Translations under genes and position numbers: made by a program | Notes under the pieces: model-generated | What the model saw: only the letters and a program-made list of their open reading frames with translations | Databases searched by the model: none | Told to the model about the DNA's origin: nothing | From: an uncultured Marinoscillum sp. | GTDB lineage: Bacteria; Bacteroidota; Bacteroidia; Cytophagales; MED-G16 | Assembly (NCBI GenBank): GCA_902634135.1 | Contig: CACPJB010000002.1 | Coordinates: forward strand, 24-64,023 | Reading direction: 5' to 3' | Length of the DNA: 64,000 bases | Part shown: piece after piece, positions 20,015-34,801 of the stretch | Layout: each line of letters opens with the position of its first letter | How positions within the stretch are numbered: the first letter of the stretch is position 1

Positions 20015-21691
20015 ATGAATAATTCTGATTCTACTAATTCTAATGAAAATTTTTTAGAGCAAATTATCAAAAATGATTTAGATAATGGATTTGATAATAC
20101 CAAACTAAGGTTTAGGTTTCCACCAGAACCAAATGGATATCTTCACATAGGTCATGCTAAATCTATATGTTTAAATTTTGGTTTAGGTAAATTATTTTCT
20201 GCTCCAGTAAACTTAAGGTTTGATGATACAAACCCAGAAAAAGAAAACATTGAATATATTAACTCAATCAAAGAAGATATCAAGTGGTTAGGCTTTAATT
20301 GGGACTTAGAGTGTTACGCATCAGACTATTTTGATAAATTATATGATTGGGCTATTCATTTAATAAAAACTGACAAAGCATATGTAGATTTTCAAGATCA
20401 GGAAACAATATCAAAACAGAGAGGAATACCTACCGTCCCTGGAGAAAAAAGTCCATATAGGGAAAGGTCAGTTAATGAGAATTTAGATAATTTTCAAAAG
20501 ATGAAATTCGGTAAATATAATCCTGGGGATTGTGTTTTAAGAGCAAAAATTGATATGGGATCTCCTAATATGCACATGAGAGATCCAGTATTGTATAGAA
20601 TTATGAATACAAGTCATCACAGGACTAAGGGAGAATGGAAAATATACCCTACATATGATTGGGCTCATGGACAGTCTGATTTTATTGAACAGGTTTCTCA
20701 TTCTTTTTGTACCTTGGAGTTCGAAGTCCATAGAGAATTATATGATTGGTTTTTAGAAAATATTGATCAAAAAAATAAGTTAATTCCTAAACAAAGAGAG
20801 TTTGCTAGACTCAATTTGTCATATACAATTATGAGTAAAAGAAAGTTAGGAGAATTAGTAGATTCTGGATTGGTAGAAGGATGGGATGATCCCAGAATGC
20901 CTACAATTTCTGGTTTAAGAAGAAGAGGAATTCCTCCTCAGGCAATACTAAATTTTTGTGAGAAGGTTGGTGTAGCTAAAAGAGAAAACATTATTGACTA
21001 TGCTTTACTTGATTTCTGTACAAGAGAAGTTTTAAACAAAATTTCATATAGATTAATGGTTGTTTTTGATCCTGTAGAATTAATAATAACAAATTATGAT
21101 GAAAATAAATCGGAAGTATTATTAGCTGAAAACAATCCTGAAGATGAAAAATATGGTAATCGTGAAGTATCCTTTTCAAAAAATTTATTAATTGAAAGAG
21201 AAGATTTTAAAGAGGAAGCTAATAGAAAATTTTTTAGACTGGCATTAGGGAAAGAAGTGAGGCTTAAAAACGCTTATATTATTAAAGGAGAAAGTATTGA
21301 AAAAGATAATAAAGGAAATATTAAAAAAATATTTTGTTCATATGATCCTAAATCAAAAAGTGGATCTGGATCACCTGAAAGTTTAAGGAAAGTTAAGGGT
21401 ACTATTCATTGGGTAGACAAGAATAATTACGAAAAAATTTCTATAGATATATATGATAGATTATTTAAAATTGAATCTCCAGATGAAAATAAAAGTGATG
21501 ATTTTAAAGCTCAATTAAATAAAAATTCCCTGAAAACATTTGAAAATGCATGTGGAGAATCAAATATAAATAATGTTGAATTTGATAATTATTATCAATT
21601 TCAGAGAAAAGGGTATTTTAAACTTGACAGTAGAAATTCGAATAAAAAATTTAATAGAACTGTTACTTTGAGAGATAATACTAAGTTCTGA
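20015..21691 (+). CDS. glnS: Glutamine--tRNA ligase
   Basis: RFPPEPNGYLHIGH, RFDDTNP, CTLEF, MSKRKL, WDDPRMPT, FNRTV.L.D. Confidence 0.96.
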   Translation: MNNSDSTNSNENFLEQIIKNDLDNGFDNTKLRFRFPPEPNGYLHIGHAKSICLNFGLGKLFSAPVNLRFDDTNPEKENIEYINSIKEDIKWLGFNWDLECYASDYFDKLYDWAIHLIKTDKAYVDFQDQETISKQRGIPTVPGEKSPYRERSVNENLDNFQKMKFGKYNPGDCVLRAKIDMGSPNMHMRDPVLYRIMNTSHHRTKGEWKIYPTYDWAHGQSDFIEQVSHSFCTLEFEVHRELYDWFLENIDQKNKLIPKQREFARLNLSYTIMSKRKLGELVDSGLVEGWDDPRMPTISGLRRRGIPPQAILNFCEKVGVAKRENIIDYALLDFCTREVLNKISYRLMVVFDPVELIITNYDENKSEVLLAENNPEDEKYGNREVSFSKNLLIEREDFKEEANRKFFRLALGKEVRLKNAYIIKGESIEKDNKGNIKKIFCSYDPKSKSGSGSPESLRKVKGTIHWVDKNNYEKISIDIYDRLFKIESPDENKSDDFKAQLNKNSLKTFENACGESNINNVEFDNYYQFQRKGYFKLDSRNSNKKFNRTVTLRDNTKF

Positions 21692-21741: not shown

Positions 21742-22404
21742 ATGGACACAAAAAAAATTGAATTAATTGGTGATAATCACGAAATTTTTTCTTTGGATAC
21801 TCCTCTAAGAAAAGATGCTTTTGTTAAATCTAATAATGAAAAAATAAAAAATATAGAAAAACATTTTACTAAGATTATAGATGAATTAGGTCTTGATCTT
21901 ACAGATGATAGTATAAGTGGAACTCCTTATAGAGTTGCTAAAATGTATGTTAAGGAAATTTTTAGTGGTTTAGATCCTGAAAATAAACCAAGAATATCTC
22001 TTTTTGATAATAAGTATAATTATAATAAGATGCTTATTGAGAAAAACATTGATTTAAATTCTACTTGTGAACATCATTTCCTACCTATTACCGGTAAAGC
22101 ACATATTTCTTATATTTCTAGCGGCAAGGTGATTGGTCTATCAAAATTAAATAGAATAGTTCAATATTATTCTTATAGGCCTCAAGTTCAGGAAAGATTG
22201 ACAACTCAAATTTATAATGAATTGAAAGAAGTTTTAGATACAGATAGTATTATGGTAGTTATTGAGGCAAAACACCTTTGTGTTTCTGCAAGAGGCATAA
22301 AGGATTACTCAAGTTCGACAGTAACAGAGATGTATGGAGGAGATTTCAATATTTATAATAAAAGGGATGAATTTTACAAACTTTTAAATTCTGTAAAAAT
22401 TTAA
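21742..22404 (+). CDS. folE: GTP cyclohydrolase I
   Basis: TP.RVAKMY, STCEHHFLP, GLSKLNR, RPQVQERLT, HLCV..RG. Confidence 0.96.
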   Translation: MDTKKIELIGDNHEIFSLDTPLRKDAFVKSNNEKIKNIEKHFTKIIDELGLDLTDDSISGTPYRVAKMYVKEIFSGLDPENKPRISLFDNKYNYNKMLIEKNIDLNSTCEHHFLPITGKAHISYISSGKVIGLSKLNRIVQYYSYRPQVQERLTTQIYNELKEVLDTDSIMVVIEAKHLCVSARGIKDYSSSTVTEMYGGDFNIYNKRDEFYKLLNSVKI

Positions 22405-23594
22405 ATTATAAAGTCCTCTAAATATTTATATTTTTTTTTAAGCCTTCCATTTTCAGCAATTGTAGCATTATATAATATTTTTTCTTCATCTTTTTTAAAT
22501 AATGGTAGCACTTCATTGATAAGCTTATTTCCAAAATAATTTGATGCATCTCTAGGTAGCTCTGAAGCTAAATTATCAATTGACATGATAGTTATATTTT
22601 GTTTATCAATAAATCCTTTTTTCACTTTTTTAGTTCTGACACAGTAATCAAAAAAAGGCTCATCTATTGTTGATGCTTTTTTTGTACATGGAATTGACCC
22701 ATTTATATCACAACTAATATCACCAATAATTTTAATTCCAAAATTTTTATTTATTTCACTTTCCTCAAAAAGTCTAGGTGAATTAGGATTCCAATAAGTT
22801 CCATTGATTAAAATATCAGTTTTATCAATAAATTTTTTAAAGGTTGATTTATATTTTTTAGGATTATCATAAAATTCTTTTTTATTAAATGGTTTACTTT
22901 TTTTTGATTTATAATAATCGGAAGCATCTGCTATTGTATAAGTTGGATATTTAAATTTTTTTTTTAAAAATTCATTCACTTTAATTTTTTTTATTTTAAA
23001 CGACCTAAGAAGTTCTTCACATCCTTTAGAGACTCTGCCTTTACCTGTAATTAATATCTTTATGGGGTATCTAAGATTTAAATTTTGATTTTGGACATAT
23101 AAATCTTTTGTGTCTTTAAATTCTTTTAACCTTTTTAATTGAAACAATTTATATTTTAAACCATAACCCATTAATGTATTATAAGCCCCTGCTATTCCTG
23201 CATATTTTCCGAATGCAATAATTCTTTTGTTGTTATTATTTAGGCATTCATAATCAATTAATTTTATTTTTTTCTTAATTATTTCCTTCAATAAGTTTTT
23301 ATTATGTTTTTGCTTTTTTATTGTATGAGAAAAAATTAAATATGTTTTTTTTTCAAGTAATTTTTCAACAGGAATTTCTTTAATGCCAATTATTAAATTA
23401 CAATGGGATAAGTCATTTTGTACTTTAACTTTTTCATCTAAAAACTCTTGATCAGAGAAACACCTTATGTTACTTTTTTCAACAGAAACAGAGAAATCAT
23501 TTAATTCATTTAGTTTCTTTGCCTGTTTTGGTGTTATTGGGCTTCTACTGTCAAATGGTACTTTATATTCTTTAGCTATTCCAATTCTTATCAT
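22401..23594 (-). CDS. AlaDh/PNT-family NAD(P) oxidoreductase (saccharopine dehydrogenase / lysine-ketoglutarate reductase-like)
   Basis: GIKE.P, FSHTIKKQ, LIDYE.L, AFG..AG, G.GRV..G, DISCD..GSIP, DNL..ELP.DAS..FG. Confidence 0.8.
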   Translation of the reverse strand: MIRIGIAKEYKVPFDSRSPITPKQAKKLNELNDFSVSVEKSNIRCFSDQEFLDEKVKVQNDLSHCNLIIGIKEIPVEKLLEKKTYLIFSHTIKKQKHNKNLLKEIIKKKIKLIDYECLNNNNKRIIAFGKYAGIAGAYNTLMGYGLKYKLFQLKRLKEFKDTKDLYVQNQNLNLRYPIKILITGKGRVSKGCEELLRSFKIKKIKVNEFLKKKFKYPTYTIADASDYYKSKKSKPFNKKEFYDNPKKYKSTFKKFIDKTDILINGTYWNPNSPRLFEESEINKNFGIKIIGDISCDINGSIPCTKKASTIDEPFFDYCVRTKKVKKGFIDKQNITIMSIDNLASELPRDASNYFGNKLINEVLPLFKKDEEKILYNATIAENGRLKKKYKYLEDFII

Positions 23595-25107
23595 TTATGG
23601 TTTTAAGGCTGTTGTTTATTCTTTGAATTAATATTTCATTTTTAATAAAATTAATTTGAGAAAAAAGATCCGCTCCACTTACTTTTCCTGATATACATAA
23701 TCTTAAAGCTTTCATTCCATCTCCAATTTTTATTTCCTTTTGACTCAATTTATTTGTATAAAAATTTTTTAGTATTTGAGTACTTTTATTTTTTTTTATT
23801 TCATTCTTAAATAATACTAATAATTCTATAAGATCTTTACTTAAATTAATTTTTGATATATTTTCTTTAAGTTCTAATAGATTGTATTCAATGATTATTT
23901 TAATTTCATTGATTATGTCTCTTCGAAATATTACTCTATCTCTAACAATTTCAATAATGTTTTTAATTTTTTTACTATCAATTATATCTTCAAATCTTTC
24001 CTTTATTTCATCTTGAAGTTCAACAATTAAAATTTTATCAGAGATTTTTTTAATGTGTTCTATATTGAACCATTTTGCTTTTTCATAATCATATTTTGCT
24101 CCGCTTTTAATTATCCTCTCTATAGTAAACTGATTTATTAATTCATCTAACTCAAAAATTTCTTTTTCATTTCCAGGATTCCATCCTATCATACTTATAA
24201 AGTTTATAAAAGCCTCTTTTTCAAATCCAATTTCTTTAAATCCTTCGAAGGTTATATCATTATCAGACCAACTAATTGGGTAAACAGGAATTCCAAATTT
24301 TTGTCCATCTCTTTTACTTAATTTACCTTTACCAGTAGGCTTTAATATTAAAGGTAAATGAGCAAAATTAGGTTTATTCCAACCAAAAGATTCATATAGT
24401 TGCCAATGTAAAGCTAAAGATGGTAACCACTCTTCGCCTCTAACTACATCAGAAATTTTCATCAAATGATCATCAATAACATTTGCTAGATGATATGTGG
24501 GCATACTATCATTTTTAAAAAGAATTTTATCGTCTAACAATTTTAAGTCTACTTTTATTTTCCCTCTTATCTGATCTTCTATTAGTATTGAGTCATTATT
24601 AAAACTCTTGTCATAGGATTTAAATCTTATTACATAATTTTTTTCTTCTAGAAATTTTCTATAAGTGCCTTCATCTAATGATAGCGAATTTTGAAATTTT
24701 TCTCTGTTTTCCCAGTTATATATAAATGTCTCTCCTTTTTTTTCTTTTTCTTTCCTTGCCTGATCAAGTGCTTCTGTGCTATCAAAAGCAAAATAGGCTT
24801 TACCATTTTCTATCAGCTTTTTAATATGTTTATTATAAATAGATTTTCTTTCAGATTGTCGATAAGGGCCAAATTTTCCAGGATTTTTTGGGCTTTCATC
24901 TGGTATAATTCCACACCATTCTAGGCTATCATTAATATGTTTTTCAGCTTTTTTATCAAATCTATTAAGGTCTGTATCTTCAATCCGTAAAATAAACTTT
25001 CCTTTTTGATTTTTTGAAATTACATAATTGTAAAGAGCTGTTCGAAGTCCTCCAATATGTAAAGGTCCCGTTGGGCTAGGCGCGAATCTTAATCTTTTTT
25101 CAAGCAT
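23572..25107 (-). CDS. gltX: Glutamate--tRNA ligase
   Basis: RFAPSPTG.LHIGG, RIEDTD, PYRQSER, RGEEWL, KLSKR. Confidence 0.96.
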   Translation of the reverse strand: MLEKRLRFAPSPTGPLHIGGLRTALYNYVISKNQKGKFILRIEDTDLNRFDKKAEKHINDSLEWCGIIPDESPKNPGKFGPYRQSERKSIYNKHIKKLIENGKAYFAFDSTEALDQARKEKEKKGETFIYNWENREKFQNSLSLDEGTYRKFLEEKNYVIRFKSYDKSFNNDSILIEDQIRGKIKVDLKLLDDKILFKNDSMPTYHLANVIDDHLMKISDVVRGEEWLPSLALHWQLYESFGWNKPNFAHLPLILKPTGKGKLSKRDGQKFGIPVYPISWSDNDITFEGFKEIGFEKEAFINFISMIGWNPGNEKEIFELDELINQFTIERIIKSGAKYDYEKAKWFNIEHIKKISDKILIVELQDEIKERFEDIIDSKKIKNIIEIVRDRVIFRRDIINEIKIIIEYNLLELKENISKINLSKDLIELLVLFKNEIKKNKSTQILKNFYTNKLSQKEIKIGDGMKALRLCISGKVSGADLFSQINFIKNEILIQRINNSLKTINDKNWNS

Positions 25108-25491
25108 TTACTTTTTAATTGCTATGCATGATATTTCAACATTTACATCTAGCGGTAATTTAGACACCTCTACAGTTTCTCTTGCTGGAGGAATGCTATT
25201 TTCAAAATATTTTCCATATTCCTCATTAACTTCTGCAAAGTTTTCCATGCTTTTTAGGAAAATGGATGTTTTTACTATATCATTTATTTGAAAATTTGCC
25301 TCATATAATATTGCTTTTAAATTTTCCATTACCTGTTTAGTTTCTTCTCTAATTCCTGAATTAACTAAACTTCCATTTTTAGGATTTAATGGTATTTGAC
25401 CAGAAACAAATATCATGTTATCATAACTAATAGCTTGATTATAGGGCCCTATTGGTTCTGGAGCCAGCTCTGTTAATATTGGTTTTTTCAT
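25108..25491 (-). CDS. RidA/YjgF family imine deaminase
   Basis: AP.PIGPYNQA, VSGQIP, N..Y..YF, PARE.V.V..LP....VEI. Confidence 0.92.
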   Translation of the reverse strand: MKKPILTELAPEPIGPYNQAISYDNMIFVSGQIPLNPKNGSLVNSGIREETKQVMENLKAILYEANFQINDIVKTSIFLKSMENFAEVNEEYGKYFENSIPPARETVEVSKLPLDVNVEISCIAIKK

Positions 25492-25521
25492 TGTTTTATT
25501 GTTTGATACAAGATACTTTTT

Positions 25522-26454
25522 TTATTTCTTTTCTAAAAAATTTTCAGCTATCATACACCTGGCACTTCCTCCACCTAGAGTTTCGATTATATTTAAATCA
25601 CTATAAATTATTTCATTATAATTTTCAATTGCTGTAATTTGATCTTTATGAAGACTTTTGTATGCTCTTTTACTCATAACTATAAACTTTTTATTATTTT
25701 CATTTTCAATTTCAAGCATATTTCCTGCAAAATTATTCAGTTGAAATTCAGAAATCTCAATTATTTCTTTTCCAGTATTTTTCAGTTTTCTAATAATTAG
25801 GTCTCTTTCATTTTTATTATCTATACATTCTAAACAAATTATTGAATAATTTTCTCCAATATTCATAATTACATTTGTGTGATATATTTCTTTTCTTTTT
25901 TTATCTACTGTATGGTAAGATCTAAAAGTTATAGGGTCATATTCTAATTTTTCACAAAAACTATTTAATAGATTTAAATCTGTTCTTTCAGAAATTGATG
26001 CATAACATATTTTATGTATTCTGTCCAAAACCATACTTCCAGTTCCTTCTAAAAATTTTTTTTCTTCCTCATATTTTGTTAAATCAATGATTTGATTTAG
26101 ATGATAATTGTTATTTAAGTATTCAACAATATCGTTTCTTCTTTCTCTTCTTCTGTTCTTTGAAAACATAGGATATAAATATAAATTCCCATTTTTATGA
26201 AGAGAGAACCAATTGTTAGGAAAAACACTATCAGTTGTTATAATGTCTTCTCTGTCATCAAAAACATCTACTGTTATGTTGTTGTCTTCTAATTTACATA
26301 CCAACATGTTAAATTCTTCAATTGATTTTTGTTTAATATCTAAACTTGAAAGGTTATTTATTCTTTTTTGAAAATAATTATTATCGGCTGTTTCAATGTT
26401 ATAATTAAAATGTTTTGGCCTTATCATAATAACCTTTGATGTATTCTGAATCAT
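25522..26454 (-). CDS. ctlX: Citrulline utilization hydrolase CtlX-like amidinotransferase
   Basis: MIRP..F.YN.ETA.NN.FQ, D..FPNNWFS, LEGTGSMVLDR, IYHTNV, GGGSARCM.AE. Confidence 0.85.
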   Translation of the reverse strand: MIQNTSKVIMIRPKHFNYNIETADNNYFQKRINNLSSLDIKQKSIEEFNMLVCKLEDNNITVDVFDDREDIITTDSVFPNNWFSLHKNGNLYLYPMFSKNRRRERRNDIVEYLNNNYHLNQIIDLTKYEEEKKFLEGTGSMVLDRIHKICYASISERTDLNLLNSFCEKLEYDPITFRSYHTVDKKRKEIYHTNVIMNIGENYSIICLECIDNKNERDLIIRKLKNTGKEIIEISEFQLNNFAGNMLEIENENNKKFIVMSKRAYKSLHKDQITAIENYNEIIYSDLNIIETLGGGSARCMIAENFLEKK

Positions 26455-26508
26455 CCTAAATTTTATTTTCTAATACTAAAATATGCATTAAATATTATTT
26501 ATATAATG

Positions 26509-27672
26509 TTATTTTTTAAATGTATCCTGTAGTGTATCCTTCCTATAGGATAATAAATTCCCTTTTTTAAATAGTATTTTTGGTTTTTTCTCTTTAATTC
26601 TTTCTGTATTTTCAATTTTTATATCAAGAATTTTACTGATATAATCTTTCTCATTCATATAAGTGTATTCTTTTTTGGTTTTTTCAATTGAATTATGCCC
26701 AAGTATTGATGATATAAGATAAACATTCTTGGTTTTATTATACATCTTCATTACGTATGTGTTTATTCCATCTCTATATTTTTTTTGAGGGTTAATTCCT
26801 GATATAACCATAAGCCTATTGAATTCTTTTGATTTGTTTTTTTTAGAATTTTTAAGTTTAAATACGTTTTTTATTTTTTCTTTTCTTTTGCCAAGTAATT
26901 TTCTAGCTTTTTCTCCAAAAGGGATGACAAACTTTTTTTTATTATAATCAACATCTATATAGTATTTTTTGTTTTTAAGATTTTTGATATTTTCCCATTT
27001 GATTATTTCTAGGATTTTTAATTTTGAGCCAGTATAAAAAGAGAATAAAAAGGCATTTTTTATTTCTTTATTTCTAAACTTAGCTCTCTTTATTTTTTCT
27101 ATTTCTTTTTTACTAAAAACATTTTTTATTTTTTTTTCTTCTTTATATTTTATTCCTGACACTCTAGGATATTCACATAATTTTAATTTATTTATATTAA
27201 TTAAGACGCTTTTGAAATTGTTCCAATATTTCGAGGCTGTACTGCCTTTTATTTCATTATTTCTGATTTTTTTTTCTATATTTTGTTTTGTTATTTCAAG
27301 AAATTTTTGATTTATATCTCTAATATTAAGATGTTCAATATTATTATTGGATCTAATAAAATTAAATACAGCATTTGTATTATTGATATTTGAAAATTCA
27401 TAAAATAAATTTTTAAATAGGTATTGATTATTTTCTTCTAACTTAATATTTGATCTATTATTTTCTAAGTCATCTTTTGCTCTTCGTAAGATTTCTTCAC
27501 AACTTATTTTTATTTCTTTATTATGTGACTTTTCAATATCATTGTTGGGTGATATCCATTCCCACAATTTTAAACTTTCAACTTTTGCCTTATTTTGACT
27601 TACTCTATATCTAATGTATAAGTTATACTTTGTGTTATTATAGTTTTTTCTTTTCCAAAGTTGTATTTTCAA
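26509..27672 (-). CDS. Tyrosine recombinase/integrase homolog with a degenerate active site
   Basis: Bacteroidota integrase-like N-terminal arm domain (LYIRY...KVESLKL...EK.HNK), central STA..Y, AFLFS.YTG, ..ISSILGH. The box I Arg and the HxxR motif are not recognisable. TTG start. Confidence 0.75.
   Translation of the reverse strand: MKIQLWKRKNYNNTKYNLYIRYRVSQNKAKVESLKLWEWISPNNDIEKSHNKEIKISCEEILRRAKDDLENNRSNIKLEENNQYLFKNLFYEFSNINNTNAVFNFIRSNNNIEHLNIRDINQKFLEITKQNIEKKIRNNEIKGSTASKYWNNFKSVLININKLKLCEYPRVSGIKYKEEKKIKNVFSKKEIEKIKRAKFRNKEIKNAFLFSFYTGSKLKILEIIKWENIKNLKNKKYYIDVDYNKKKFVIPFGEKARKLLGKRKEKIKNVFKLKNSKKNKSKEFNRLMVISGINPQKKYRDGINTYVMKMYNKTKNVYLISSILGHNSIEKTKKEYTYMNEKDYISKILDIKIENTERIKEKKPKILFKKGNLLSYRKDTLQDTFKK
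26518..26541. repeat. Tandem TGTATCCT pair, left (candidate integrase arm-type sites)
   Basis: TGTATCCT at 26521-26528 and 26533-26540, 12-bp period, inside the last codons of the integrase. Confidence 0.7.
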
Positions 27673-27700
27673 TAGTGTATCCTTAAATGTATCCTTAAAT
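27673..27700. repeat. Tandem TGTATCCT pair, right (candidate integrase arm-type sites)
   Basis: TGTATCCT at 27676-27683 and 27688-27695, 12-bp period, directly upstream of the integrase start. Confidence 0.7.
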
Positions 27701-27740
27701 TTTATTTAAAAATACATATATTTATTGATTTAAGGCCTAT

Positions 27741-28646
27741 TTATTTTATTCTTTTTAATGGTAAAGTTGAGCATCTAAATAATCCACCAAATTTTGAAAT
27801 CTCTCTATAATATACTTTTTCAACAGTTATTTTATAACCTGTTAATACATCATTTAGTCTATGAAATGTAGAGTCAGATACTACTACATTGCTATTGATT
27901 GAAAAAATATTAGAGTTTCCATCATACATTTCCTTTTGGTCAATATATATTAAATTATTCTTCCCAAAAATTTTCTTTATCTTTTCATAATCCTCTTTAT
28001 TTTCAAAACCATCCTTATATATAATTAATTTATTTTTTCCTACTGGTTGCATTGCACAGTCAAGATGGAGAATGTTTTTATAAGGATTATTATCATCTTT
28101 TATCATTTCAAAACCTATAACTTTTTTATTTGGGAAATGTTTTTGCATAAATTTTATAGAATTATATGATGTTCTTGCCACTTTTAATTTATCATCTTTA
28201 CTATATCCTATAAAAATAAAATCATTATGAATAATAATATCTCCTCCTTCAATATGTATTGTATTTGGAACCAAAATTTTTTCCTTTTCTTTCAGACTAT
28301 TAGAAAAATACTTGATCCCATCTTTTTCATTATTTCTTTGATCAATGATTTCAGGGATAAAGAATTTATTTTCCACAACAAAGGCAATATCTCTTGTGAA
28401 AATCTGATTTAAATTTTTAATAATATTCGGTCGAAAAACTTCAATTTCATATTTGAGCAAAGTTTCATGAAACCTCTCAATTTCTTTAATACAATCTTCT
28501 TGTGATGGGAATGTATTATTTAATATATTTTCTTTAGTCTTTGGATCTATACATTTATCAATGGATTGGTTTTCAATCATATCGTCAGCTATACCTAATA
28601 TAACAGACACTAATTGGTTGGTCTCATTGTTTATATATAGCCCCAT
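27741..28646 (-). CDS. Arginine deiminase / dimethylarginine dimethylaminohydrolase family protein
   Basis: NQIFTRD, IEGGD, LHLDC, GGLFRC.TLPL.R pentein motifs. Confidence 0.85.
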   Translation of the reverse strand: MGLYINNETNQLVSVILGIADDMIENQSIDKCIDPKTKENILNNTFPSQEDCIKEIERFHETLLKYEIEVFRPNIIKNLNQIFTRDIAFVVENKFFIPEIIDQRNNEKDGIKYFSNSLKEKEKILVPNTIHIEGGDIIIHNDFIFIGYSKDDKLKVARTSYNSIKFMQKHFPNKKVIGFEMIKDDNNPYKNILHLDCAMQPVGKNKLIIYKDGFENKEDYEKIKKIFGKNNLIYIDQKEMYDGNSNIFSINSNVVVSDSTFHRLNDVLTGYKITVEKVYYREISKFGGLFRCSTLPLKRIK

Positions 28647-28650
28647 AAAA

Positions 28651-29835
28651 TTAATCTACACTTAAAATGATTTTCACGTATTCTTTTGGCGCAATTATAC
28701 CATTTAAAACTTCAAATTCTAGATTTTTTAAATCTTCTCCTTTTGTTTTAACTGCTAATGTATGAGTTGAATTAGGATTTATAGAAATAATATCACTATT
28801 TGTCTCGAAGGTAAATGGGTTTAAATTTTTTAAAATAAATGGAGCATCAGAAATATTTTTTATTTCTATTTTTTTAATAGTTGATTTTCCATCTTCAGAG
28901 TAACCAAGTTCTAAATCATTAATGTTATTAATTAAAAGACATTTTTGGATTAAAGGCTTTAAGTTTTCTTCTTTACCTATTAAAAGCTCATTATAAAATA
29001 CGACAGTTCTGCCAGAAAAAAGAGCTTCTTTAATACTTTCTTTACTTTTATTTTTTGCAAAAACCATAGTGATTGGTCGATGACCAGGTGAGTTTGTATT
29101 TAACGCTTCATCATCATTTGGAACTTTAAATAACCAGTCAATTAATCCATGAATATCTGAGGTTCCCATTATAGTGAGATTATTTTTAAGTGCTATATCT
29201 AATGCCTCTTCAGAAAAATATAATTCATTTACAACTTCTATACCGTGTAATAAATTCTTATCAATTAGATATTTATGAAATTCATCTAATCGTGCAATTC
29301 CATCACTTCTCTGAGCGGGCCAAGCAGGATGATTCCAAAAAACAAATGCATTCTGTTTATTTGCCTCTTGAATACCTTTTAAAGAATCATTTGGATGTAA
29401 TAATTTGTTTGCATCATCAAGAAAAATGGCATTAATATGACCAGGAGGCATTGATCTAGTTATTTCTTGACCATTTATAATAATTAACTTTTTATCAATT
29501 GATTTATTTAACCTTTCAGTAAAATCATTTGCAACAATATAGGCCCTATTTCTATCTGGATTAGGAATATCTTTTGAAAATGGTTGATATTCAAGATGTT
29601 CTGTTAACGAAATTGCATCTAAACCATCTCTTACAGCCTCATCTACTCTTATAGTAGGCCAAACTAAACCATCAGAGAAAACTGTATGCTGATGAAAATC
29701 GGTTAGTAATGTTTTATAATTTTCGATATCAGGAAAAAATAGTTTTCTTTCATATTTATTTTGCTTTTGTCCGTATAATTGATTGTTAAAAAGTAAAAAA
29801 ACACATAGTAGAAAAGTTGGATTTATTTTTATCAT
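28651..29835 (-). CDS. Exported PHP-domain phosphoesterase (Sb-PDE-like)
   Basis: Signal peptide; DFHQHTVFSDG.VWP..RV.EA, TEHLEY, EITR.MPPGH.NA, FWNHP, GTSDIH. Confidence 0.85.
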   Translation of the reverse strand: MIKINPTFLLCVFLLFNNQLYGQKQNKYERKLFFPDIENYKTLLTDFHQHTVFSDGLVWPTIRVDEAVRDGLDAISLTEHLEYQPFSKDIPNPDRNRAYIVANDFTERLNKSIDKKLIIINGQEITRSMPPGHINAIFLDDANKLLHPNDSLKGIQEANKQNAFVFWNHPAWPAQRSDGIARLDEFHKYLIDKNLLHGIEVVNELYFSEEALDIALKNNLTIMGTSDIHGLIDWLFKVPNDDEALNTNSPGHRPITMVFAKNKSKESIKEALFSGRTVVFYNELLIGKEENLKPLIQKCLLINNINDLELGYSEDGKSTIKKIEIKNISDAPFILKNLNPFTFETNSDIISINPNSTHTLAVKTKGEDLKNLEFEVLNGIIAPKEYVKIILSVD

Positions 29836-29893
29836 TTTAAATATTGGTTAAGTTTTATTGTTATTAAAAATATAAGTATTATTTTATTAAAAA

Positions 29894-31066
29894 ATGAGAA
29901 CACAGTATTTTTTGATTTTTAGTTTTATGTTTTTTAGTTGTACTTCAACTAAGTACCTTGTTTCAAATACTGGGTTTCCAAAAGCTCCAGATTATAAATA
30001 CATGAAAAATTGGATTTCATCTCCAAAAAAAGAAATTCCATTACCATTAAATTATATGGACTCTTTAAAAGGTTTCAAATCAGAGGTTGATGTTTTTTAT
30101 ATTTATCCAACTGTATATTACGGTGGGTATAATGGTAATTTCTGGAACTCAAATCCTGAAAATTTTGATCATCAAAATAGAGTAGACGCTCTAGCTTTAA
30201 AAAATCAAGCAAGCGTATTTTCAGGTTTAACTAATGTATATACTCCTTTATATAGACAGCTGTTTTACGATGGTTTAGTTTATCATAATACTAATGAGTT
30301 ATTAACAGAGATAGCATTAGACCCTAAATTAAAGAGTAATTTCAATTATTATAAAGATCTTATTTACTCAAATAAATCTTTGGAATATTTTTCTTTTGAG
30401 AACAATAAACTTAAGTCATACGCAAAAGAGTCTTTTGATGTAGCTTATAATGATATTAAAAGAGCATTTTTAATTTACCTAGAACAAGAAAACAAAGGGA
30501 AAAAAATAATTATTGCTGCTCACAGTCAAGGGACTCTCCACGCAGCAAGACTAATTGATGAAGTTATTTTGCCAGATGCTAATTTAAAAAGCAATTTAAT
30601 ACTAGCCTATCTTATAGGGATGCCTGTATCTAGTGAATTTAAAGATTTTCCAGTTTGCGAAGATCCTTTGCAGCTAAATTGCTTTATGTCCTGGAACACT
30701 CATGGAAATAATTATTTTCCATATGATAATGAAGTCTATAAAGAAATTGTAGCTAATAACCCAATAACTTTTAAGTCCGACAGAAACATTAATAATATAA
30801 AAGATCATAAGGGAATTTTAATGCCAAGCTTTTTTCAGATGTTTAAATATCAAATTTTAAACCGACCTATAGGCCCATTAAAATTAAAAAATGAGAATAA
30901 AATTAAAGCTCAATCAGACAAAGGTTCTTTGCAATTAATAGAATTAAATATACCATGGATTAAAATATTTGAAAAAGAAAGTTTTCATGCTGGTGACTAT
31001 AATTTTTTCTGGCTTAATATAAGAGAGAATTTATTTTTCAGATTATCTAATTATTTTAATGAATAA
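29894..31066 (+). CDS. DUF3089 alpha/beta-hydrolase lipoprotein
   Basis: Lipobox FFSC; DVFYIYPT, QASVF, P.YRQ, AHSQG nucleophile elbow, H.GDY..FW.NIREN. Confidence 0.85.
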   Translation: MRTQYFLIFSFMFFSCTSTKYLVSNTGFPKAPDYKYMKNWISSPKKEIPLPLNYMDSLKGFKSEVDVFYIYPTVYYGGYNGNFWNSNPENFDHQNRVDALALKNQASVFSGLTNVYTPLYRQLFYDGLVYHNTNELLTEIALDPKLKSNFNYYKDLIYSNKSLEYFSFENNKLKSYAKESFDVAYNDIKRAFLIYLEQENKGKKIIIAAHSQGTLHAARLIDEVILPDANLKSNLILAYLIGMPVSSEFKDFPVCEDPLQLNCFMSWNTHGNNYFPYDNEVYKEIVANNPITFKSDRNINNIKDHKGILMPSFFQMFKYQILNRPIGPLKLKNENKIKAQSDKGSLQLIELNIPWIKIFEKESFHAGDYNFFWLNIRENLFFRLSNYFNE

Positions 31067-32027
31067 ATTACTATTCAATTCTTTTTTTTTATTTCTATTT
31101 ATTTCTTGTAATGTTGATTCACAAGAATGTTGTGATGATGAAATAATAGAGGAGGTTTTTCAAGATTTAGGATTTGATAAACCATATACTTATAATAATA
31201 TTTATTATGGTAGAAATAAATATATTGAATTTCATCCTGGTTCACTTCCACTAATTATAGCGGCTCCTCATGGAGGTGACTTAATACCTTCAGAAATTCC
31301 AGATAGAACATATGGTACTATGGTTACAGATAGCTATACAAAAGAATTAACATTAGCAATCAAAAATGCTTTTTTATCAAAGCTAGGCAAAACACCATAT
31401 GTGATAATTAATAACTTAAAGAGAACAAAATTTGATGCTAACAGAGATAGTATAGAGGGCGCACAAGGTAATAGATATGCAAGAAGAGCATGGGAAGAAT
31501 TTCACTATTACATTAATGAGTCCAAAATAATGGTTAAACAAGATTTTACCTATGGTTTGTTTTTAGATATACATGGTCATGGGGCAAACCCCGATGGATT
31601 TTATGATTTAAGAACATGGTTAGGGTATTTGTTAAATAAAGATGAATTACAATTATCAGATGTGGAATTAGATAATGAAAATTACCAAAATAAAAGTAGT
31701 ATTAAAACTCTTTCTATTATATCGCCTGAAAATTTTATTGATGTTTTGAGAGGTAATAATAGCCTTGGATCTTTACTTGATAGTCTTGGTTATAAATCTG
31801 TTCCTAGTGTTAATGATCCAAGCACAAATGGCACTCACTATTTTAGTGGCGGGTATAATACCAAGACTCATGGTTCAGCAATTAGTGGAAGTCCTATAAG
31901 TTCTATTCAACTTGAACTTCCAAAACCAGGGATAAGAGAAAACTCATTGCAAAGAAAAAATTACTCTGAGTCCTTAGTAATTACTCTTCAAAAATATTTT
32001 AAAATACACTATGGTATAGAATTATAG
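31059..32027 (+). CDS. N-formylglutamate amidohydrolase-like (Zn-exopeptidase fold) lipoprotein
   Basis: Lipobox ISC; APHGG, K.DANR, DIHGH, YFSGGY.T..HG, IQLE.P. Confidence 0.7.
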   Translation: MNKLLFNSFFLFLFISCNVDSQECCDDEIIEEVFQDLGFDKPYTYNNIYYGRNKYIEFHPGSLPLIIAAPHGGDLIPSEIPDRTYGTMVTDSYTKELTLAIKNAFLSKLGKTPYVIINNLKRTKFDANRDSIEGAQGNRYARRAWEEFHYYINESKIMVKQDFTYGLFLDIHGHGANPDGFYDLRTWLGYLLNKDELQLSDVELDNENYQNKSSIKTLSIISPENFIDVLRGNNSLGSLLDSLGYKSVPSVNDPSTNGTHYFSGGYNTKTHGSAISGSPISSIQLELPKPGIRENSLQRKNYSESLVITLQKYFKIHYGIEL

Positions 32028-32029
32028 AT

Positions 32030-32872
32030 CTAGTCTAACCTGTACCTTCCATCTGGCAGATTAGTTGGAAATTTAAATTCTGGGTCAGTTAATAAAGAGT
32101 AAACTAACTGGTCGCCATTCTTTACTTTTTCTTTTGTATTGAGCCTCCATTCATGTTGTATTTCTTCTAGTCGTCCAGGAAACTCTTGTGCCCCTAGTAT
32201 AGAAGTCAACGCCCAATAGGTATATTCAGTGATTTGACAGGAGTAGTTACATGTTTTATCATCATAAGTATACCAGGCACTAGATGGATATGAATTAGGA
32301 ACATTTTTAAAATACCCTCCTCTAGCTTCATCCATAGCTTTTGCTATTTCTGAATTTTTATTTTCACCAAATTTATTAGGGTACACTTCAGCATAGCCAT
32401 GTTGTGTAATGAGGTGCAGTATTTCTTCGAGAGAAGCATCAAATCTAGGATTCCCATTAATTATTGATACCTCTTCATCATATAATTCTAAAAAAGCTAA
32501 ATTTCCAATAGGGAACCTTATTGCAGCACTTGATTCTTCTTCATTCATAGCCATTAATAACCAAGCTTTTTTATCAATTAATCTATTTACTATTCTTTGA
32601 TTATCAGCAGTTCCATCTTCATCATTATCCAAATATTCAGCCAATATAGAGGCTGCGTGAAGTACTTTCTCATTGTCTACGTTTTCTGTAGCATAAATTT
32701 TAATGCCAAAGACGTCTGATGTTTTACAGAAATACTTAAAGTAATTCTTATCGGATTCGCTTACTCCAGTAATTTTAATAAATTCCGTGCCATATTCTAG
32801 ATCCAAGCAATTCTCATAATTATCTTGACATGATAATAAAATAAATAGGAGTATGAAAAAAATATTTTTCAT
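32030..32872 (-). CDS. Lipoprotein with a zincin-like EExxH motif
   Basis: Start set to MKNIFF (lipobox LLSC); FDASLEEILHLIT.HG, CQITEY.YW. Confidence 0.65.
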   Translation of the reverse strand: MKNIFFILLFILLSCQDNYENCLDLEYGTEFIKITGVSESDKNYFKYFCKTSDVFGIKIYATENVDNEKVLHAASILAEYLDNDEDGTADNQRIVNRLIDKKAWLLMAMNEEESSAAIRFPIGNLAFLELYDEEVSIINGNPRFDASLEEILHLITQHGYAEVYPNKFGENKNSEIAKAMDEARGGYFKNVPNSYPSSAWYTYDDKTCNYSCQITEYTYWALTSILGAQEFPGRLEEIQHEWRLNTKEKVKNGDQLVYSLLTDPEFKFPTNLPDGRYRLD

Positions 32873-32873
32873 G

Positions 32874-34070
32874 TTAATTAAATAATCTTTTTTTTTCTTT
32901 GTATTTAATTTGAGCGTTGTAGTATTGAGATGATGTGCCTTCACAATTTAGTCTTTCTAAATTAAATTCTTTTGGAATTTCATTATTAAAAATCAAAATA
33001 TTTTTAACCATTTCTCCTAAGCCAGGTCCAAGTTTGAATCCATGGCCAGAACTTCCTGATAAAACAAGAACATTATCATTTTTTTTATGATAATTCATTA
33101 TAAAATTACCATCCAAACTATTCTCATATTGACAAACTCTTGTTTCAGCAATTGGTAACCCTTTTAGGTTAGGGAATCTATGGTAAAGATATGTCTTTGT
33201 CCTTTTGACTAGTTCAGGAAGTGGAACCCTGTCTGAAGAATCAGGGTCAAATTTAGTTGATCTTTCATCATATGCTATTTTAAATCCTTTATTTAAATGG
33301 AATGGAATACCATAATATGAAGGATTATTAGCATTTAAATCAAGCCAACATGGAATTTTATTTAAATTATATTCCGCAGCTTTATTATTAGGAACTCCGA
33401 AATAATAAACCTCTTGTCTAGAAATGTAAGTCGTATTTTCTAACATTTCAGGAAGTAATTTCCTGTTCCATGGTCCACAAGCTATAACATATTTATCAGC
33501 CTCAATGTTTTTTCCATTATAGGTTATTGAATTTTTATTTTCTAAGTTTTTTTCATCAATTGCAACTTCACCTAAATAAACTTTACCACCGTTATCTTTG
33601 AATTTTCTAACAATATTTTTACAACACCTGCTAGCCATTAAAGCACCAGCTTTTTTTTCAAGGTGAACCTCATTTATATCATCAAAATTTATTAAAGGAT
33701 ATCTTTCCTTAGCATCTTTTTTTGAAATTTGCTCAATATTATGACCTACGCTTTCTATATGCTTTTTAGATTTAGTTATATAACTATTATCTTCTTGACT
33801 TACAAGCCATAACATTCCACATTCATCATAAAGTTTTCTTTCACTCTTATTTGATAGGTTTTCCCAAAATTTAAAAGAATTATTTGTTAGCTCTGTATAT
33901 ATTTTATCATCTCCATATGTCAATCTAATTATTCTTGAAGCTCCTCCTGAACCCGATCTAGAATTACCGGCTCCCCACATATCATAAAGTTCAACATCAC
34001 AGCCTTCCTTATTTAAAAAGTATGCTGAGCATGCTCCCCAAATTCCAGATCCTATAACCGCTATTTTCAT
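32874..34070 (-). CDS. FAD-dependent oxidoreductase, monomeric sarcosine oxidase / SolA-like
   Basis: IAVIGSGIWG, SGSGG.SRIIR..YG, GPW, CQYE...DG.FI, GSSGHGFK.GP. Confidence 0.85.
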   Translation of the reverse strand: MKIAVIGSGIWGACSAYFLNKEGCDVELYDMWGAGNSRSGSGGASRIIRLTYGDDKIYTELTNNSFKFWENLSNKSERKLYDECGMLWLVSQEDNSYITKSKKHIESVGHNIEQISKKDAKERYPLINFDDINEVHLEKKAGALMASRCCKNIVRKFKDNGGKVYLGEVAIDEKNLENKNSITYNGKNIEADKYVIACGPWNRKLLPEMLENTTYISRQEVYYFGVPNNKAAEYNLNKIPCWLDLNANNPSYYGIPFHLNKGFKIAYDERSTKFDPDSSDRVPLPELVKRTKTYLYHRFPNLKGLPIAETRVCQYENSLDGNFIMNYHKKNDNVLVLSGSSGHGFKLGPGLGEMVKNILIFNNEIPKEFNLERLNCEGTSSQYYNAQIKYKEKKRLFN

Positions 34071-34123
34071 TTTACGTTATTAATTTGATAGTTTGCATAA
34101 ATATAGATTTATTATTTTTAACT

Positions 34124-34801
34124 ATGAGAAAAACATTTATAAAACAGGGTTATTTAGGAATATTAGTTTTTGTTTCTTTATGTGTTGTTTCAATGATATA
34201 TTATCCTGGAGGAACTATAATTGATTCATCTACTGTTGGTTATCTATTTTTCTATAACTTTTTTAGCAATTTAGGTGAATGGACAGCAAAAAATGGAGAG
34301 TCAAATCTTTTTTCAGCATATTTATTTAATACATCAATGTTAGTTTTAGCATTATCTTATTCTTTGTTTTATTTCAATTTTTTAAAAGTTATTATCAATA
34401 AAAGCAAAAACATTTTACTAAAAAGTTTATTAATTACCAGTATATCAATCTCTCTATTGGGTTTTGTTTTTGTTGCTATATTTTCATCGGAAACAAGTAC
34501 ATTTTCTCTTCATATTCTTTTTGTTAAAATTGGTTTTTATTCACTTTTCATACATTGTATAATTCAGACTATATTTATTTATTCAATAAAATTGCCTAAT
34601 AATATTTTGTTTAAATCAACCTTCTCATTTACAACTATTATGTTTCTTTTTGTTCTCATGATGGAATTTGGCCCAAATCCATTTGAAAACAATCAATCAT
34701 TATTTATTCAAGTAACCTCTCAGAAAATTATTGTTACAAGTATTTTAATTTATTACTTTGTTCAGATTAGGGAGGGACTAATATTAGAGAGTTCTAATTA
34801 A
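34124..34801 (+). CDS. Hypothetical multi-pass membrane protein (DUF998-like)
   Basis: M..YPGG....GY.F..NFFS.LG motif and about 6 TM helices. ATG 34124 preferred. Confidence 0.6.
   Translation: MRKTFIKQGYLGILVFVSLCVVSMIYYPGGTIIDSSTVGYLFFYNFFSNLGEWTAKNGESNLFSAYLFNTSMLVLALSYSLFYFNFLKVIINKSKNILLKSLLITSISISLLGFVFVAIFSSETSTFSLHILFVKIGFYSLFIHCIIQTIFIYSIKLPNNILFKSTFSFTTIMFLFVLMMEFGPNPFENNQSLFIQVTSQKIIVTSILIYYFVQIREGLILESSN

Follow-up and report, generated by a model that had tools for sequence, protein, structure and literature searches.

A degenerate, probably domesticated tyrosine integrase with tandem repeats at both ends of its gene is retained across a streamlined marine Cytophagales family

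A degenerate tyrosine integrase encoded in the window (the whole 64,000-nucleotide stretch analysed here, from a contig of an uncultured Marinoscillum sp.) is, in the clade to which the window belongs, very probably a domesticated, non-catalytic protein (Table 1). The original prediction had proposed that selection keeps this integrase for a non-catalytic role, and that claim is supported: the gene is family-wide, single-copy and syntenic, its dN/dS resembles that of its housekeeping neighbours, and the arm-binding domain is the most conserved region. By the features tested, the protein does not classify as an active tyrosine recombinase, nor the gene as a mobile element.

Table 1 Coordinates of the integrase gene, its predicted domains, the tandem repeats and the neighbouring genes within the window.
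Feature	Position	Strand	Details
Degenerate three-domain tyrosine integrase gene	26509..27672	minus	387 aa, TTG start, TAA stop, pI 10.0
Predicted arm-binding domain, aa 1-70 (three strands and a long helix)	27463..27672	minus	Profile alignment and model; most conserved region, dN/dS 0.12
Predicted core-binding domain, aa 86-162, conserved TASKYW helix	27187..27417	minus	
Catalytic-fold domain, aa 182-349; K217, R300, I303, H326, Y336	26626..27129	minus	
Family-specific C-terminal motif FKKGNLLSY, aa 368-376	26545..26571	minus	Low model confidence
5′ tandem repeat AGGATACA-N4-AGGATACA	27676..27695	minus	Ends 3 nt before start codon
3′ tandem repeat AGGATACA-N4-AGGATACA	26521..26540	minus	Same orientation as 5′ pair; overlaps last codons
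Upstream neighbour, amidinotransferase / arginine-deiminase-like gene	27741..28646	minus	
Downstream neighbour ctlX (citrulline utilization hydrolase)	25522..26454	minus	First of tight same-strand run
Rest of downstream same-strand run: RidA-family gene (Pfam), putative gltX, saccharopine-dehydrogenase-like gene	22401..25491	minus	

The 387-codon frame had been described as staying open in AT-rich DNA, and this is borne out by composition: GC content is 21.6% in the gene and 29.0% in the genome, and 387 stop-free codons would arise at the gene's composition with a chance of ~2e-19. Single-sequence searches with the 387-aa protein returned no match in NCBIfam or the PDB, and its Pfam Phage_integrase score (20.7 bits, E 4e-4) falls below the cut-off of 27.1 bits. 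The AF2 model (mean pLDDT 82.5) has a three-strand-plus-helix N-terminus followed by helical core-binding and catalytic domains, with a low-confidence tail from residue 354. Foldseek returned tyrosine recombinases in all listed rows (including XerH, XerA, Tn1549 Int and lambda Int), profile matches included XerA and HP1 Int, and the core-binding and catalytic fold of tyrosine recombinases is therefore present. Against a 31-member profile built from intact integrases, profile-profile alignment extended the homology over residues 1-342 (probability 100, E 1.2e-52). Arm-DNA-bind_5, SAM_5 and Phage_integrase domains were found together in 7/7 outgroup integrases scanned, an architecture that we take to be that of the IntCTnDOT subgroup as described in PMC8138268. 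The Pfam arm-binding model matched 0 of 32 members of the dead-integrase family, in which the predicted arm-binding domain rests on the profile-profile alignment from residue 1 and on the model. At the level of sequence homology, the 387-aa protein descends from IntCTnDOT-type arm-binding integrases of mobile elements.

A protein search recovered 93 family proteins of 39-100% identity and one distant integrase, and a 32-protein family profile run against 1.84 billion representatives found the family and then dropped sharply to ordinary integrases. The nearest outgroup is a small clade known from metagenomes (P0133 and P0294-P0296) in which R-K-H-R-H is intact; P0133 joins the dead-integrase family with an SH-like support of 99 (FastTree, 90 rows, with a long branch and midpoint rooting only), and none of 401 genomes searched for P0133 gave a match. 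These intact sister proteins end ~35 residues earlier than the dead-integrase family, whose C-terminus consists of a variable linker followed by FKKGNLLSY, a motif that is conserved, with synonymous variation, among 26 non-redundant members and is absent from the intact sister clade. The tail looks like the product of read-through to the 3′ repeat followed by selection, and the gain of the motif suggests a new contact.

The active-site motifs had been read from the translation alone as TGSK, KYRDGINTY and LGH with a downstream Tyr, and these readings hold in both a MAFFT alignment with active integrases and the profile-profile alignment. TGLR reads TGSK, with Arg-I replaced by K217; TFHxxRHTF reads KYRDGINTY, with R300 for His-II and I303 for Arg-II; LGH is retained (H326), with Y336 at H+10. 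Residue placements agree between the two methods, an alignment artefact behind the missing residues is rejected for that reason, and no better alignment restored them, an outcome that had been named as contrary to the prediction. The catalytic pentad R-K-H-R-H/W is thus incomplete (K217, no conserved hairpin Lys, R300, I303, H326). The 142 distinct family proteins tallied are redundant rather than independent; at the Arg-I position they have Lys in 114, Arg in 16 and Ser or Thr in 9. All 16 proteins with Arg-I lack His-II and Arg-II; these two residues occur together in only 9/142, which form the basal clade with Ser/Thr at Arg-I, and the combination of Arg-I, His-II and Arg-II was found in 0/142. 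His-III is present in 119/142 and Tyr at H+10 in 138/142. Among 63 outgroup integrases, the catalytic positions are 95-100% conserved and the hairpin Lys-Thr is present in 63/63, with no conserved counterpart of this Lys-Thr in the dead-integrase family. The canonical H+9 position is Glu in the 387-aa protein, and Y336 is probably the former nucleophile, because Phe at H+9 followed by Tyr at H+10 is the arrangement in 3/4 intact sister proteins.

In Tn1549 Int, the substitution R225K (Arg-I to Lys) gives an inactive mutant (PMC5871717). The IntCTnDOT trait of an Arg-I or a downstream replacement Arg does not describe the dead-integrase family (Arg-I in 16/142, and no conserved hairpin Arg in the Ser/Thr clade). 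The basal genus, in which His-II, Arg-II, His-III and Tyr are kept, is probably dead too, less certainly than the window's clade, because IntDOT works without Arg-I via a downstream Arg (PMC8138268); no conserved hairpin Arg or Lys-Thr was found in this genus. Two other integrases in a same-genus genome (G007; L045 743-1969 and L047 991-2280) have SSLPF at the Arg-I box and keep the Arg-x-Lys-Thr hairpin and HxxR, an IntDOT-like arrangement, and one of them adjoins an apparent type I methyltransferase gene.

The orthologue is single-copy in 22/24 other genomes of the family, in all three genera. The two absences are assembly gaps: G016 also lacks both neighbours, and the G024 contig stops 47 nt into the gene. 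Family genomes are ~1.5-1.8 Mb, and the sequencing runs holding the stretch are marine where labelled. Synteny was counted at loci with at least 250 nt of flank, drawn from 23 genome and 51 metagenome loci (own genome included), and every assessable locus kept the arrangement: the upstream amidinotransferase gene adjoins the integrase in 22/22 genome and 49/49 metagenome loci and ctlX adjoins it in 22/22 and 36/36, respectively, and no assessable locus in the dead-integrase family lacks the integrase. Outside the family, the upstream gene and ctlX are adjacent without integrase or repeat at 4/28 outgroup ctlX loci (4 genomes), and the remaining 24/28 have no upstream-gene match within 1.5 kb. 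A 201-genome sample of the order contained 32 genomes of other families with only distant matches (E 1e-26 to 1e-47), and the 17 distant loci inspected in other families had mostly intact motifs and other contexts. No close relatives were found in viral contigs or GenBank phages.

The statement that no mob, excisionase or cargo genes flank the integrase was confirmed, its neighbours being the amidinotransferase/arginine-deiminase-like gene and ctlX, and the patchy distribution, variable site and cargo typical of a mobile element are not seen in a gene that is present in 22/24 genomes at one site and without cargo. A tRNA-linked island is rejected, as the sole tRNA of the window lies 11 kb from the integrase gene. 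Genes in the same-strand run around the cassette are separated by 0-68 nt, and no terminator is predicted there on that strand; gltX, presumably encoding glutamyl-tRNA synthetase, and the saccharopine-dehydrogenase-like gene were named by recognition from their translations. A sigma-70 scan was at chance level (52 vs 58 ± 9), and no structured RNA was matched by Rfam in 22000-30000. In metatranscriptome run X19, a single contig matches 26713-27114 with 2 differences (DNA carry-over is possible, so it does not establish expression), and no long piece on the integrase gene was found in three further RNA-type runs. Beyond the upstream neighbour, the presence of the genes at 28651-34801 of the window (a PHP-domain gene and several predicted lipoprotein/hydrolase genes) varies across L001-L019, the downstream block being fixed. 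On the other side, the genes read as glutaminyl-tRNA and glutamyl-tRNA synthetase (20015-21691 and 23572-25107) lie <2 kb apart on opposite strands.

Pairwise NG86 dN/dS of the integrase ranged from 0.08 to 0.52 (median 0.18) over 91 pairs with at least 72% identity and dS >0.03. The value was 0.15 over 12 hand-picked disjoint pairs; ctlX gave 0.17 (10 pairs) and the upstream amidinotransferase gene 0.13 (11 pairs). Of the domains of the integrase, arm-binding had the lowest value (0.12), followed by core-binding (0.14), catalytic (0.17) and the tail (0.25). Internal stops are absent from all locus-derived copies, and dN/dS is far below 1, where the original prediction had named frameshifts and values near 1 as signs against it. 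In the gene tree, the basal genus, the middle genus and the window's own genus form separate clades, and comparison with a tree of four flanking genes gave 15/20 shared splits and five well-supported conflicts, all inside the largest genus; descent has been mostly vertical, with some exchange or tree error. Between some close relatives (L017 vs L075/L078; L015/L016 vs L019/L083), the upstream amidinotransferase-like gene diverges more (dN ~0.33) than the integrase (dN 0.02-0.16), which suggests allele replacement right beside a fixed cassette. In one locus (L081, 1728-2411), the orthologue enters unrelated DNA after ~125 codons, owing to an insertion or a chimeric contig.

The two tandem repeats, at 27676-27695 and 26521-26540, were missed by the earlier reading of the window. 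The 5′ pair is present in 57/57 distinct full-length orthologues and the 3′ pair in 56/57 (the lone exception, L068, has one base changed), and these counts are not circular, since the loci were fetched by protein; the 5′ pair of G024 has one change. Only two such tandems occur in the window's own 965-kb assembly, both at the integrase gene, with 0.02 expected by chance, and 45 of the 46 exact tandem sites in 25 family genomes flank the integrase gene, exactly two tandems being present in 21/25; a reversed control pattern had 2 occurrences in all 25 family genomes. The span from pair to pair is 1141-1204 bp across orthologues, and the 3′ pair lies entirely past the stop codon in 10/57. The GGATAC pairs are the sole conserved sequence in 32 5′ and 36 3′ non-redundant flanks; in the intergenic DNA around them, where core sites would be expected, no att core or overlap sequence is conserved. 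With the form and position expected of tandem direct repeats bound by the N-terminal domain of an integrase, the repeats are likely arm-type sites (or an operator at the 5′ pair), and there is good reason to expect that the 387-aa protein binds them.

Other origins of the repeats were considered and set aside. As a by-product of coding 'KDTL' they are rejected, since the 5′ pair does not encode protein and, in 10/57, the 3′ pair is located entirely beyond the stop; as a Shine-Dalgarno sequence, AGGA in the second 5′ copy is suitably spaced, yet four copies are left unexplained. A regulon controlled via the motif is also rejected, as a search of 25 genomes that tolerated 2 mismatches found only scattered extra sites, in numbers comparable to the control. 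One identical variant repeat site recurs in G004 and G011, and the L009 gene carries a third repeat unit at its 3′ end, the first of the three having one change. Some orthologues (L006, L008, L015, L040, L088 and L089), though not all, carry a TAnnTTTG-like element, which we take to be the -7 promoter box of Bacteroidota, immediately before the 5′ pair.

The same tandem also occurs near a tyrosine-integrase ORF in 22/80 viral loci listed (80 of 106 matches), but 20 of these 22 belong to one near-identical prophage group, leaving ~3 independent cases, so that the association is suggestive only. In this prophage group (L100/L145, L115/L136), the AGGATACA tandem lies near both contig ends, inverted, with one copy ~20 nt past an intact integrase gene. 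A few intact relatives (L044, L253 and L258, among 20 inspected) have tandem direct repeats upstream, with a different sequence.

We propose that the family ancestor acquired an element between its amidinotransferase gene and ctlX, and that cargo, core sites and chemistry were subsequently lost and the new C-terminal motif gained. With its arm-binding domains, the protein would bind the tandem GGATAC repeats at either end of its own gene, and binding at the 5′ pair, abutting the start codon, would repress the integrase gene, as IntS does at attL. The lambda Int geometry is a tetramer on two arm pairs; here, likewise, four sites in two pairs would equal the four arm-binding domains of an integrase tetramer, closing a loop of ~1.15 kb. 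Because the cassette lies in a same-strand run without a predicted terminator, the complex would set or buffer transcription into ctlX-ridA-gltX. The placement of the flanking repeats favours self-repression or looping, and a regulon through the GGATAC motif is not expected, because the repeats occur only at the integrase gene. Pure self-regulation would not explain the retention of a dead integrase, and the presence of the cassette at every assessable locus argues for a benefit, because 20-bp direct repeats should make its deletion easy. On whether that benefit is the regulation of the downstream run we are inclined about equally either way, and our confidence is likewise evenly divided over the full model, in which a domesticated dead integrase binds its own four sites and regulates both itself and ctlX-ridA-gltX. 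Purifying selection also acts on the core-binding and catalytic folds (dN/dS 0.14 and 0.17) despite the lack of a conserved core site, and this constraint hints at another target or partner.

Several other readings of the same observations carry less weight. The dead protein may be an anti-element decoy that poisons incoming related integrases through mixed oligomers, trapped Holliday junctions or occupied arm sites, the repeats serving only to keep its level low. Retention of all three domains, of His-III and of a Tyr at the sister clade's likely nucleophile position is in keeping with this idea, as are the existence of an intact sister clade in metagenomes and the viral tandems described above (22/80 viral loci listed, ~3 independent cases). 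Nevertheless, PADLOC matched 0/32 family members, no relative was found in viral contigs, and the 3′ pair would be superfluous for simple self-repression. Genes for defence against changing elements tend to be variably present and fast-evolving, unlike the dead integrase, which is core and as constrained as its neighbours, and we consider the decoy unlikely, if still worth weighing.

A rather unlikely explanation is that the integrase is an entrenched relic that confers no new benefit, ctlX-ridA-gltX having come to depend on the element's promoter, which is harmful unless the protein represses it. The position of the cassette among closely packed same-strand genes, upstream of one that is likely essential, and the restriction of the sites to the gene's own ends, are what such entrenchment would leave behind. 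However, a single deletion between the 20-bp direct repeats would approximately restore the ancestral outgroup junction, yet no assessable locus is empty, and the C-terminal motif is newly gained and conserved at the protein level.

We regard as improbable a role as a chromosome anchor or architectural factor that marks one locus and tethers it via the new tail or via non-specific binding by the core-binding and catalytic domains. There is one locus per genome, the protein is basic (pI 10.0) and the motif in its disordered tail is conserved, but dnaA is on another contig in 5/5 genomes checked, the recurring dif-like site is on other contigs where listed, and two Xer-sized recombinases are retained in most genomes. 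Replacement of Xer, or a link to origin or terminus, likewise finds no support in dnaA, the dif-like site or the Xer counts, the contigs being short. An identical 20-bp dif-like sequence, a candidate dif site for this Cytophagales family, occurs once per genome among the matches listed (G004:C10:58032, G006:C19:30895, G009:C10:7087, G022:C49:85, G023:C43:6727, G024:C4:57178 and G021:C64:2995).

It is also quite improbable that the protein is still an enzyme, nicking DNA or excising the 1.15-kb cassette as a switch through atypical chemistry or, in the basal genus, with full activity. The near-universal Tyr at H+10 (138/142) and the frequent His-III (119/142) would be expected of an enzyme, and the basal genus, with Ser/Thr at Arg-I, has an intact HxxR, IntDOT being active without Arg-I via a downstream Arg (PMC8138268). 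The window's clade, however, lacks both Arg residues, His-II and Lys, the basal genus has no conserved hairpin Arg or Lys-Thr, and there is no conserved core or overlap sequence. Excision, which had been named as an observation that would speak against a dead integrase, was not detected in contigs of four DNA runs, a weak test because contigs drop rare forms; the joints detected in these contigs and in those of the RNA-type runs have short sides of 21-37 nt, and none connects the two cassette ends. Ordinary decay of a defunct element is scarcely credible and is rejected: the low Pfam score, the database homologues that are short or end in unrelated residues (8/93 are <365 aa, maybe as broken copies or assembly errors) and the basal-type P0095 (on a 1.76-Mb contig; its 300 aa end short of HxxR, as a broken copy or through a sequencing error) are outweighed by a dN/dS of 0.08-0.52 in 91/91 pairs, by the absence of an internal stop from every locus-derived copy, one of which (L081) enters unrelated DNA, and by family-wide retention in ~1.5-1.8 Mb genomes.

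Among known systems, the closest in homology are the IntCTnDOT-subgroup integrases of Bacteroidota conjugative and mobilizable elements (IntDOT, IntN1, Tn4555 Int), which resemble the dead integrase over their full length, including the arm-binding domain, and in host phylum; a few of its intact relatives of this type also have tandem direct repeats beside the start codon. In contrast to this subgroup, the dead integrase has an incomplete catalytic set and no cargo, excisionase or conserved core site, and it is a fixed single-copy core gene with an extra C-terminal motif and repeat pairs at both gene ends. XerC and XerD share with it a vertically inherited chromosomal tyrosine-recombinase fold, but they are active and lack an arm-binding domain, and two Xer-sized genes are separately present in most family genomes.

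In its probable mode of action, by analogy, the dead integrase would work most like SroF or the autoregulatory side of IntS, and it parallels TnsF. IntS of prophage KplE1 represses its own gene by binding near the -10 box in attL, so that the region where that gene starts is overlapped by its binding sites, as we infer for the dead integrase; IntS is itself active, tRNA-linked and prophage-borne and has a directionality factor (PMC2951348), whereas the dead integrase seems left with the binding layer only, plus a second pair at the 3′ end. SroF of SPbeta-like phages is a dead tyrosine-recombinase fold that acts as a repressor (10.1101/2025.11.27.690993), and it thus exemplifies the reuse of a catalytically dead fold as a sequence-specific DNA-binding regulator, a role that the position of the sites would suggest for the 387-aa protein. 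As described in the same source, SroF is the product of a phage gene and has an antirepressor; it binds as a monomer, comprises just the core-binding and catalytic domains and is missing the Tyr, in contrast to the 387-aa protein, a host core gene product with an arm-binding domain and the Tyr kept. TnsF of Tn6022-like transposons is an inactivated tyrosine-recombinase derivative with an active relative, but it is a target selector with zinc fingers within a mobile transposon (PMC10293859), and there is no transposase near the dead integrase gene. Reuse of dead integrase folds as DNA binders is therefore already known from SroF and TnsF. For a dead arm-binding integrase of the host core with sites at both gene ends, we found no description in the open-access literature, and the available text of a review of mobile-element recruitment (PMC8987985) contains no such case.

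Genomes of ~1.6 Mb keep few dispensable genes, and a core dead integrase with intact sites must do something. Its domestication is visible stepwise, from an intact sister clade through a basal genus with a partly intact active site to derived genera with none, together with an empty outgroup junction. As a tentative possibility, which we doubt more than we believe, what the host kept is the 'arm layer' of an integrase: a dead tetramer that, with its exactly four arm sites, would close a 1.15-kb loop on itself and act as a feedback valve on an essential gene run. Such regulators may have arisen repeatedly in streamlined bacteria, from integrases unrelated to one another. Should the loop model be right, the protein would be a host-encoded counterpart to the phage repressor SroF, and if repeated domestication is true, it would represent an undescribed class of host regulators. 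These results suggest that 'integrase' annotations in streamlined genomes can be regulators, and not signs of mobile DNA.
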